Sequence record: MH051915
Source of the DNA: Enterobacteria phage vB_EcoM_IME339
Reading direction: 5' to 3' (one strand)
Length of the DNA: 64,000 bases
Part shown: positions 32,277 to 33,333 of the stretch, in pieces
How positions within the stretch are numbered: position 1 is the first letter of the stretch
Layout of the letters: each line of letters starts with the position of its first letter
Translations under genes and position numbers: made by a program
Notes under the pieces: model-generated
Told to the model about the DNA's origin: nothing
Database searches by the model: none
What the model saw: only the letters and a program-made list of their open reading frames with translations

Positions 32277-32518
32277 TGTCTGAACAAACTATTGAACAAA
32301 AACTGTCTGCTGAAATCGTAACTCTGAAGTCTCGTATCCTTGATACGCAGGACCAGGCGGCTCGTCTGATGGAAGAATCCAAAATTCTGCAAGGAACTTT
32401 GGCTGAAATTGCTCGCGCAGTAGGTATCACTGGCGATACTATCAAAGTTGAAGAAATCGTTGAAGCTGTCAAGAATCTTACTGCTGAATCTGCTGATGAA
32501 GCAAAAGATGAAGAATAA
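32276..32518 (+). CDS. 57A: Tail fibre assembly chaperone gp57A
   Basis: 80 aa; [23 protein letters not shown] coiled-coil; host-like codon usage typical of this highly expressed gene. Confidence 0.88.
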
Positions 32519-32973
32519 TGGAATTTAAAGACTTTTCAACGGGTCTTTATGTAGCAGCTAAGTTTTCAGAATTAACACTTGATGCGCTGGAAGAACTCCA
32601 GCGCTCTTTACGTGTTCCTAATCCAGTTCCTAGAGAAAAAATTCATTCGACCATATGTTATTCAAGAGTAAATGTTCCGTATGTTCCATCGAGTGGAAGT
32701 TTTGAAGTAGCTTCTTCTGGACATTTAGAAGTATGGAAAACACAAGATGGATCGACTCTTGTACTTGTGCTAGATTCTGAATATCTGCGCTGTAGACACA
32801 TGTATGCGCGGGCACTAGGTGCTACACATGATTTTGATGATTACACACCGCATATAACATTGTCTTATAATGTTGGGCCCTTATCATTTAGCGGTGATGT
32901 ACAAATTCCGGTCGTATTAGATCGTGAATACAAAGAGCCTCTTAAACTTGATTGGGCAGATGATTTAAAATAA
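32518..32973 (+). CDS. 57B: gp57B; 2H-phosphoesterase fold, anti-CBASS nuclease Acb1 homologue
   Basis: 151 aa; two H-x-[ST]-x motifs (HSTI, HITL); position after 57A. Acb1 = T4 57B is from published literature. Confidence 0.8.
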
Positions 32974-33016
32974 TTTCACAAAGTTGTTTACACGTTGATG
33001 AGGTAGTGATACTATT
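32970..33016 (+). promoter_or_regulatory. T4 early promoter upstream of ipI
   Basis: GTTTAC -35 with TGATACTAT -10 region. Confidence 0.55.
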
Positions 33017-33045
33017 ATCTCATCAAAATTAATTAGGAAAATAAA

Positions 33046-33333
33046 ATGAAAACTTTCAAAGAATTTACTACAAAAACTACCCCGGTTTCTACTATTACTG
33101 AAGCTACTCTTACTTCTGAAGTTATTAAAGCAAATAAAGGACGAGAAGGTAAACCAATGATTAGTCTGGTTGATGGCGAAGAAATCAAAGGTACTGTTTA
33201 CCTAGGTGATGGGTGGTCTGCTAAAAAGGATGGTGCTACAATCATTATCTCTCCTGCTGAAGAAACTGCGTTGTTTAAAGCTAAACACATTTCTGCGGCA
33301 CATCTCAAGATTATTGCTAAAAATCTTTTGTAA
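33046..33333 (+). CDS. ipI: Internal protein I (IPI; capsid-packaged GmrSD inhibitor)
   Basis: 95 aa; N-terminal capsid targeting sequence MKTFKEFTT...ITE|A; early promoter upstream. Confidence 0.85.
   Translation: MKTFKEFTTKTTPVSTITEATLTSEVIKANKGREGKPMISLVDGEEIKGTVYLGDGWSAKKDGATIIISPAEETALFKAKHISAAHLKIIAKNLL

Follow-up and report, generated by a model that had tools for sequence, protein, structure and literature searches.

Do two counter-defence genes that lie side by side in a phage genome mark an island of such functions, and do the genes around them then become candidates for similar roles? The question is raised by the 57B (acb1) and ipI genes of Enterobacteria phage vB_EcoM_IME339 (sequence record MH051915), which are found in the 64,000-nucleotide stretch of DNA analysed here as a whole (the window). 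A preliminary description of this DNA had placed the two genes side by side, just upstream of a tRNA cluster and of a block of small open reading frames (ORFs) at 33410-34270 and 35138-39815, a layout that the coordinates confirm (Table 1), and had put the neighbouring ORFs forward as candidates for further counter-defence functions. As argued below, the pair very probably represents two T4 counter-defence genes, unrelated to each other and both characterised by experiment, that keep their ancestral order, at a junction between conserved and hyperplastic DNA, and the candidates among the neighbours can be narrowed to three: o35878, e.6 and e.5.

The Acb1 and IPI genes

The 57B product agrees with T4 57B at all 151 amino acids (100% identity), matches the Pfam family Acb1 (PF23474, E=2.6e-60, 202.7 bits for a cut-off of 27) and aligns with the crystal structure of Acb1 (PDB 7T26, E=4e-62) through both HxT motifs. 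The HxT/HxT catalytic tetrad is kept, with H43/T45/H112/T114 (within KIHSTICY and TPHITLSY, in 151-residue numbering) corresponding to the residues H44/T46/H113/T115 defined for the T4 protein (Hobbs et al. 2022, PMC9117128). Judged by its near-identity to this characterised protein, the product of 32518-32973 is Acb1, as the preliminary description had it. Acb1 is a metal-independent 2H phosphoesterase that linearises the cyclic oligonucleotides of CBASS, an antiphage system whose signalling relies on such molecules, 3′ of adenosine, via a cyclic-phosphate intermediate, and T4 without the Acb1 gene becomes sensitive to CBASS (PMC9117128). In the HIDEN-SEQ transposon data, insertions in 57B show depletion only in the presence of CBASS. 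During infection by the phage studied here, linearisation of the CBASS signals by Acb1 would mean that the CBASS effectors are never activated.

The neighbouring ipI product is 96.8% identical to T4 IPI and matches the Pfam family IPI_T4 (PF11634) at E=2e-53, and its mature residues 20-95 share 75 of 76 positions with the solved IPI* structure (2JUB). The leader, MKTFKEFTTKTTPVSTITE/A (slashes mark cleavage sites), keeps the capsid-targeting sequence (CTS) and the site of the gp21 protease, I-T-E19/A20, which can be regarded as conserved because residues 20-95 align with 2JUB, a structure that begins at A20. In T4, the CTS directs IPI to the prohead, gp21 trims it, and, once injected along with the DNA, the trimmed protein inhibits GmrSD from E. 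coli CT596 (PMC12373910, PMC3012670), while Ip2 and Ip3 each inhibit another GmrSD subtype (PMC12373910). The same pathway would operate here: the CTS would carry the 95-residue precursor into the prohead core, the gp21 prohead protease would cut off 19 residues after I-T-E to leave a 76-residue IPI*, and this protein, injected with the DNA, would block the GmrSD type IV enzyme that would otherwise cleave glucosyl-hydroxymethylcytosine DNA. Two points weigh against this assignment, namely a conservative substitution in mature IPI* (V66I) and the early type of the promoter that precedes ipI; late IPI, as needed for packaging, would be supplied from upstream late promoters, such as the TATAAATA at 31913. 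In any case, near-identity to the T4 protein identifies the product of 33046-33333 as IPI, a predicted GmrSD inhibitor, in agreement with the earlier claim, and nothing contradicts the identity of either Acb1 or IPI. That the ORF at 33046 might encode an alternative internal protein (Ip), as in phages ime09, PST and Bas37, is ruled out by its identity to T4 IPI and its match to 2JUB.

Data on related genes are available from supplementary HIDEN-SEQ tables on Bas37 (sheet 'K-12 vs CFT073', with CFE299 as a second uropathogenic host), a phage whose proteins are 86-100% identical to those of the window, save trna.3 at 60%. Two adjoining Bas37 genes, bas37_0261 and bas37_0262 (L004 10364-11153), are of note here: the Bas37 homologue of Acb1, 100% identical to the window's, is depleted on CFT073 (log2 fold change, log2FC, -1.56, q=0.003), as is the Ip at the Bas37 ipI locus (log2FC -2.09, q=0), which suggests that CFT073 has the matching defences. 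The ipI locus of Bas37 holds a different Ip, one that blocks McrBC.

A junction between conserved and variable DNA

A megablast search with 31500-40500 returned 1157 phage records, nearly all of them T4-like coliphages, with Escherichia phage ime09 as the best match (96.8% identity), and the source region can be assigned to a T4-like coliphage (Tequatrovirus) in reversed orientation relative to the T4 map. Accordingly oriented, the gene order is that of T4 read backwards (4, 2, 3, 1, 57A, 57B, ipI, trna.4-.2, tRNAs, e.8-e.2, nudE, e, denV, vs.8-vs.3, regB), and the order around the 57B-ipI locus is the same in T4, ime09, PST and Bas37. The stop codon of 57A overlaps the start of 57B by 1 nt, by which the two genes are probably translationally coupled, and 72 bp separate 57B from ipI. 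Homologues of Acb1 occur in 1469 phage records, and for 497 of these the identity is 99% or higher, which places Acb1, on its distribution and gene order, within the conserved 1-57A-57B block and outside the variable region. Mature IPI, on the other hand, was found in only 289 phage records.

Two copies of a 54-nt direct repeat (D3) bracket ipI, making it an exchangeable unit of 366 bp. In both copies a T4 early promoter has its -10 element enclosed by an inverted repeat; in the left copy GTTTACA is followed, after 17 nt, by GATACTAT, and the inverted repeat reads TTGATGAG/CTCATCAA. Such early-promoter/stem-loop (PeSL) structures have been proposed to mediate the shuffling of cassettes (PMC4122927). 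Between the same flanks, ime09 carries Ip5, PST carries ipV and ipVI, and Bas37 carries bas37_0261 and bas37_0260. Since Acb1 is widespread, IPI rarer, ipI flanked by repeats and its place taken by different Ips in relatives, the 57B-ipI pair is read as the junction of a conserved block (2-3-1-57A-57B) with the hyperplastic region.

Downstream of this junction, a collinearity map against T4 revealed several exchanges: the first third of trna.3 is swapped (33600-33784) and segB is absent, tRNA-Arg and rnaD are separated by an additional 116-residue ORF (35138-35488), rnaC is followed by an inserted cassette of 524 bp (35833-36356) with ORF 35878, and e.7 is replaced by a 132-residue ORF (36912-37310). 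The hyperplastic region would thus be one where single genes are swapped as cassettes, bounded either by early-promoter stem-loop repeats (ipI) or by duplicated terminators (o35878).

The arrangement of Acb1 next to ipI is the known one of T4, has already been described as an anti-defence island (Hobbs et al. 2022, PMC9117128) and is therefore nothing new. With about 6 supported counter-defence genes among the roughly 100 genes of the window, random placement gives at least one adjacent pair with a probability of about 0.27, and adjacency as a statistically meaningful signal by itself was rejected on this ground. On the evidence of gene order, the adjacency is inherited T4 synteny, a matter of genome architecture and not of a dedicated operon.

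The e.6 and e.5 genes

Among the neighbours, e.6 and e.5 stand out in a public screen, where the phenotype of both is strong and confined to one strain. The Bas37 homologue of e.6 (bas37_0240, 99% identical) is depleted on CFT073 with a log2FC of -6.49 (q=0) and that of e.5 (bas37_0239, 97% identical) with a log2FC of -3.62 (q=0), and no gene in this section of the CFT073 table is depleted more strongly than these; both are neutral on CFE299 and non-essential on K-12. The main text of the HIDEN-SEQ preprint contains no discussion of these two homologues, although knock-out plasmids were made.

A structural and evolutionary identity can be proposed for e.6. The AlphaFold2 (AF2) model, built on a 29-sequence alignment, consists of helices at residues 3-22 (alpha0), 25-80 and 86-145 that form a long hairpin, with a predicted local distance difference test score (pLDDT) of 82-94 in the core. 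In a Foldseek search of the PDB the top 10 matches were all Vipp1 (7o3w_A, E=5.5e-4), followed by CdvB2 and PspA. An exhaustive HMMER search outlined a closed family with 45 representatives of about 200 amino acids, two divergent members of which, P0080 and P0079, are linked to e.6 by profile matches at E~1e-20. Both pass the gathering score of the Pfam family PspA_IM30 (PF04012; 39.0 and 35.1 bits for a threshold of 33.9, over residues 6-146), one of the two is encoded on a T4-like contig beside uvsX and gene 41, and P0080 aligns with e.6 over its full length by BLASTP (E=1e-13). In addition, hhalign paired the first 60 residues of the e.6 family with the first 60 of E. coli PspA (E=1.5e-4). 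As regards membrane binding, the alpha0 helix of e.6 has only a moderate amphipathic moment (0.45, versus 0.42-0.49 for PspA).

Some results weigh against this assignment. The e.6 protein itself falls below the PspA_IM30 threshold in Pfam and gave no direct match, its single-sequence routes to PspA are weak (E~1-2 in a PDB profile search, E=0.12 by hhalign with a narrow alignment), and the exhaustive HMMER search that started from e.6 did not reach cellular PspA. The link to PspA runs only through divergent members of the family. With this qualification, e.6 is classed here as a phage PspA/IM30-type protein by predicted fold and transitive sequence homology; in the literature, no paper was found that describes it as such. 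Its neighbour e.5 has close homologues only, which are tagged PF26876, and on a distant phage contig the 186-residue gene that lies 3′ of the PspA-like gene has no detectable homology to e.5.

What these genes do on CFT073 allows more than one answer. The e.6 protein, probably together with e.5, would act as a PspA-like membrane-remodelling protein needed on particular hosts, a phage protein of the ESCRT-III type required on a clinical host, and, if true, this would open a new theme in which membrane remodelling is linked to host range. Such a need may well be non-immune, the PspA-like protein keeping up the inner membrane and the proton-motive force, for example during lysis inhibition or under a strain-specific envelope stress, and we give this possibility slightly less than an even chance. 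It would agree with the role of cellular PspA and Vipp1, which are membrane-repair factors, with the wide conservation of e.6 in T4-like phages, and with the membrane proteins encoded by the neighbouring e.2-e.4. In addition, the authors of the screen, who made the knock-outs and cloned the SanaTA system of CFT073, report no defence match. Against a purely non-immune need speak the strain specificity of the effect, seen on CFT073 and not on CFE299 or K-12, and the early promoter of e.6, which fits a role in host takeover or counter-defence; furthermore, many abortive-infection effectors act by damage to the inner membrane, so that membrane repair and counter-defence do not exclude each other.

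A role of e.5 and e.6 in defence is conceivable. In its full form, the proposal is that e.6 (possibly with e.5 and e.2-e.4) counters a membrane-targeting abortive-infection or exclusion system of CFT073 by membrane repair, while o35878, at a third ip locus, inhibits a first-line nuclease; this combination is offered tentatively, as a rather improbable one. Weighing against a part for e.6 in its own right, insertions in e.6 are possibly polar on e.5.

The o35878 gene

The second line of evidence concerns o35878, a gene absent from T4 that sits between duplicated terminators and is labelled as hypothetical in all 40 records sampled from the 510 that contain it. Its product starts with MKSYAQFLNE/AVLNE/A, that is, with a CTS-like leader and two L-x-E sites (L-N-E10/A and L-N-E15/A); the consensus for processing by gp21 is reportedly (L/I)-x-E (Black, Showe and Steven 1994; Mullaney and Black 1996). 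In the six frames of the 64-kb window the motif MK[ST][YF]x[EQ]F occurs three times, at the first codons of ipI, o35878 and ipIV. Other members of the family begin with MKTYNEFLNESVLTEA, MKSYAEFLTEQ or MKFKEFLAEA, a near-canonical version (MKTYNEFL..TEA) is also found, and L-x-E is kept in all full-length members. An annotated internal head protein of ime09 starts with MKTYSEFLSESILNEA, nearly the same 16-residue leader as that of o35878. Upstream of the gene, the last base of a match to the late-promoter consensus, TATAAATA, lies 40 nt from the ATG, an arrangement also seen for ipIV and e, and the predicted mature part is basic and rich in lysine (pI 9.5, 20 Lys), like that of other Ips. In Bas37 and ime09 the o35878 homologue has a second CTS gene (MKTYAEFLTEA) beside it, for which reason the gap between rnaC and e.8 seems to behave as a third ip locus.

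Taken together, these features make it likely that o35878 encodes an injected internal protein, that is, a CTS-bearing gene with a putative late promoter that genome annotations have missed. Every functionally characterised member of the T-even internal proteins inhibits type IV restriction. It is doubtful, by comparison, that the resemblance to a CTS is coincidental or vestigial and that the protein acts in the infected cell, or as a minor structural or scaffold-associated component, with no anti-restriction role. That the leader differs from the canonical MKTYQEFIAE in 5 of its 10 residues would fit such an interpretation, as would the uniformly hypothetical annotation and the AF2 model, which is all-helical (pLDDT 72) and gave no meaningful Foldseek match in the PDB or BFVD beyond its own family. 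The Bas37 homologue, likewise, is non-essential and without phenotype (log2FC -0.11 on CFT073 and -0.30 on CFE299), a point that weighs against an internal protein with an anti-restriction role. A chance resemblance is hard to reconcile, however, with the restriction of the motif to the starts of ipI, ipIV and o35878, with the near-canonical leaders and constant L-x-E of the family, with the almost identical leader of the ime09 head protein, with the placing of the late-promoter match and the basic mature part, and with the adjoining CTS gene of Bas37 and ime09.

Two observations on related loci can be added. In Bas37 the o35878 homologue, bas37_0244, adjoins bas37_0243 (L004 5529-6092; ime09 homologue at L001 6520-7083), a gene of 187 amino acids with a canonical CTS (MKTYAEFLTEAAK) that is absent from the window; in HIDEN-SEQ only 1 of its 48 TA sites carried an insertion and it was scored 'Essential', an odd result for an internal protein. 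In a metagenomic protein of 94 amino acids (P0014), the middle part of trna.3 is joined to a C-terminus of the o35878 family, from which it follows that some phage would have deleted everything between trna.3 and o35878, the whole tRNA cluster included.

The neighbouring block as a whole

A broader interpretation is that a functional anti-defence island begins or ends with the Acb1-IPI pair and that most of the ORFs at 33410-34270 and 35138-39815 have counter-defence functions, which we regard as unlikely. Apart from the published precedent, it can appeal to the hyperplastic character of the region, which is non-essential in T4 and Bas37, to the host-specific need for the e.5/e.6 homologues and to the likeness of o35878 to an injected protein. 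Moreover, other counter-defence genes lie in the same 30-kb stretch: gp2 (30052-30876), which protects DNA ends from RecBCD, ipIV, vs.4/acb2, nrdC.5 (about 55072-56070, 92% identical to T4), which is an anti-Dsr1 gene, and nrdC.1 (58508-58747, 100% identical to T4), which is an anti-Septu gene. The vs.4 product matches the Pfam family Acb2_Tad1_hairpin (PF24729) at E=7.8e-20 (71.3 bits, cut-off 27) and would be a second anti-CBASS protein of this phage; Acb2 reportedly acts as a sponge for cyclic oligonucleotides (Huiting 2023, Jenson 2023).

These arguments are opposed by the chance level of a single adjacent pair given above, by the database searches and by the Bas37 data. Of the 11 Bas37 homologues found in the block, nine have no effect on CFT073, and none of the 11 has an effect on CFE299; the nine are those of trna.2, trna.3, trna.4 (non-essential in T4 as well as in Bas37), o35138 (bas37_0245, also non-essential), o35878, e.8 and e.2-e.4 (bas37_0236-0238). 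The products of trna.2-4, o35138, o35878, e.8, o36912, e.5 and e.2-e.4 gave sub-threshold noise only, with no match in Pfam, NCBIfam or PADLOC, a PHROGs scan of the neighbours returned only families of 'unknown function', and PDB sequence searches with o35878, o36912, trna.3, e.6 and e.5 yielded nothing significant. No neighbour, therefore, matches a known anti-defence family among the libraries scanned (Pfam, including Acb2/Tad1, NCBIfam, PADLOC and PDB), a comparison that the preliminary description had recommended. The ORFs of the block are not among the entries of the Silas 2025 supplements, and Petrov 2010 has nothing on Ips. Finally, the conservation of e.6 extends to phages of Aeromonas, which does not resemble an accessory gene with fast turnover, and trna.4 and e.2-e.4 encode small membrane proteins for which superinfection exclusion or envelope modification is equally likely.

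The view of the neighbours as counter-defence candidates thus finds support for e.5 and e.6, through the Bas37 screen, and for o35878, through its sequence features, while most of the block is left unsupported; homologues with housekeeping functions were found only for e.6 (PspA-like) and NudE. Guilt by association is of limited use at this locus, where the available data show no homology and no phenotype for most of the neighbours.

Other genes of the window

Table 1. Features of the locus and of related genes in the window (positions as in the 64,000-nucleotide stretch; aa, amino acids)
Feature	Position	Strand	Remarks
gene 57A, tail-fibre chaperone	32276..32518	+	98.8% identical to T4 57A
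57B/acb1, anti-CBASS 2H-phosphoesterase	32518..32973	+	151 aa; assigned by T4 identity, Pfam and PDB
PeSL-like early-promoter/stem-loop cassette, left copy	32973..33026	+	54-nt direct repeat D3, 5′ of ipI
ipI, precursor of the putative injected GmrSD inhibitor IPI*	33046..33333	+	95 aa; propeptide 33046-33102, mature part 33103-33330
Early-promoter/stem-loop cassette, right copy	33339..33392	+	D3, 5′ of trna.4; 78% identical to left copy
trna.4	33410..33595	+	61 aa; two predicted transmembrane helices (hydropathy); 100% identical to T4 trna.4; phrog_1692
trna.3, mosaic allele	33597..33980	+	127 aa; 58% identical to T4 trna.3
trna.2	33983..34270	+	95 aa; 95.8% identical to T4 trna.2; phrog_2023
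tRNA cluster, eight genes	34368..35121	+	Gln, Leu, Gly, Pro, Ser, Thr, Ile(CAT), Arg; ARAGORN, Rfam; segB absent
o35138	35138..35488	+	116 aa; no T4 match; phrog_3355; 94.8% identical to bas37_0245
rnaD, rnaC (stable species 2 and species 1 RNAs)	35485..35748	+	coordinates projected from T4
Duplicated terminator hairpin, left copy, and putative late promoter	35797..35837	+	repeat D6; hairpin 35797-35832, promoter TATAAATA 35830-35837
o35878, predicted new injected internal protein	35878..36351	+	157 aa; CTS-like start, putative late promoter, basic mature part
Duplicated terminator hairpin, right copy	36356..36391	+	36 nt, 89% identical to left copy; closes o35878 cassette
e.8	36593..36856	+	87 aa; 98.9% identical to T4 e.8; early promoter 5′
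o36912, in place of T4 e.7	36912..37310	+	132 aa; no T4 match; phrog_8232; no PDB match
e.6, PspA/IM30/Vipp1-like (ESCRT-III superfamily)	37385..37978	+	197 aa; by predicted fold and transitive homology; early promoter
e.5	38020..38625	+	201 aa; 94% identical to T4 e.5; narrow distribution
e.4, e.3, e.2, overlapping small membrane-protein genes	38594..39815	+	weakly paralogous
nudE, Nudix hydrolase	39797..40252	+	94.7% identical to T4 NudE; Pfam NUDIX
ipIV, internal protein	41269..41742	+	canonical CTS MKTYQEFITEA; late promoter at 41227
vs.4/Acb2, cyclic-oligonucleotide sponge	43346..43612	+	100% identical to T4 vs.4; ~10.4 kb from acb1

The remaining neighbours of the pair are less informative. 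About the first 60 residues of trna.3 are replaced with respect to T4, which corresponds to the DNA break at 33600-33784, and trna.3, trna.2, o35138, e.8 and o36912 had no informative match in the family, PHROGs or PDB searches that were run; likewise, no paper naming trna.2-4 was found in the literature. The late-promoter consensus TATAAATA occurs on the coding strand at 33711-33718, within trna.3, and at 34022-34029, within trna.2, just 5′ of the tRNA cluster, and these sites may serve as late promoters for the transcription of the tRNAs. Within the cluster, neither ARAGORN nor Rfam calls a stretch of about 90 nt (34954-35043) in which, when aligned with ime09 and Bas37, the latter having a Tyr-Asn-His array, the 5′ part of a tRNA-Tyr runs on into the 3′ end of a tRNA-His. 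This sequence is probably a decayed chimera, and the recombination between Tyr and His appears to have proceeded through the shared T-arm, with deletion of tRNA-Asn.

Beyond the tRNAs, the window segment 35488-35832 is 93.6% identical to T4 71168-70825, and o36912 is preceded by an early-promoter repeat (D1, 36851-36886). The genes e.4, e.3 and e.2 overlap head to tail and each ends in F-x-x-E-C-R-K-x-K, with e.5 ending similarly (FVKECREY); this repeated junction motif may reflect paralogues or recombination joints. The e.2 product has 162 amino acids here versus 102 in T4.

Between e and denV (region 40783-41742), ipII and ipIII are absent and IpIV takes their place, but after denV. IpIV is 99.4% identical to the ipIV product of Yersinia phage PST and matches the Pfam family DUF7412 at E=1e-95. 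The 60 nt of DNA that cover its late promoter and CTS are common to the ipII and ipIII genes of T4, and this stretch is likely to have served as a recombination handle. Further along, the product of tk.4 (45301-45768) has a macro domain (Pfam Macro, E=2.9e-6) and is the same as that of T4 tk.4 (100% identity); it could be an ADP-ribose-processing enzyme.

Comparison with known systems

The two genes that raised the question differ little from their T4 counterparts. Acb1 has the sequence of the T4 protein (PF23474; 7T26/7T27), save for an extra N-terminal Met annotated in T4, and shares with it the tetrad, the C-terminal lid region and the genomic place after 57A; the overlap between the 57A stop and the start codon, 1 nt here versus 4 nt in T4, is of no substance. 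IPI shares with T4 IPI/IPI* (PF11634; 2JUB) the length of 95 amino acids, the CTS, the I-T-E19/A20 site, the 76-residue mature part and the locus between 57B and trna.4, and differs by S9T and T10K in the propeptide, besides the single substitution in the mature protein. The repeats around ipI are like the PeSL cassettes of T4-type phages (Arbiol 2010; Comeau 2014) in that a promoter of the form TTTACA-N17-TAYWAT is repeated, its -10 element lies within an inverted repeat, and the flanked gene varies between close relatives, whereas the duplicated intrinsic terminator that brackets o35878 represents another, though related, type of repeat.

The candidates depart further from what is known. The predicted o35878 protein resembles the T-even Ips (Ip2, Ip3, IpIV-VI, Bas37_0260) in its MK(S/T)Yx(E/Q)F leader, L-x-E sites, putative late promoter, basic mature part, non-essentiality and cassette-like insertion; in contrast, its body is unrelated in sequence and predicted to be all-helical, its locus is a third one (rnaC-e.8) and not the ipI or e-denV loci, and none of the 40 records sampled out of 510 gives it an Ip name. 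With the PspA/IM30/Vipp1 family (PF04012), e.6 would share the layout of an alpha0 helix plus a long alpha1/alpha2-3 hairpin, with Vipp1, PspA and CdvB as best folds, as well as divergent relatives that pass PF04012 and an N-terminal region of 60 residues that aligns from PspA residue 1. It differs from that family in being phage-encoded and shorter (197 versus 222-267 amino acids), in lying under Pfam detection, and in having no recognisable PspBC, PspF or LiaI partners.

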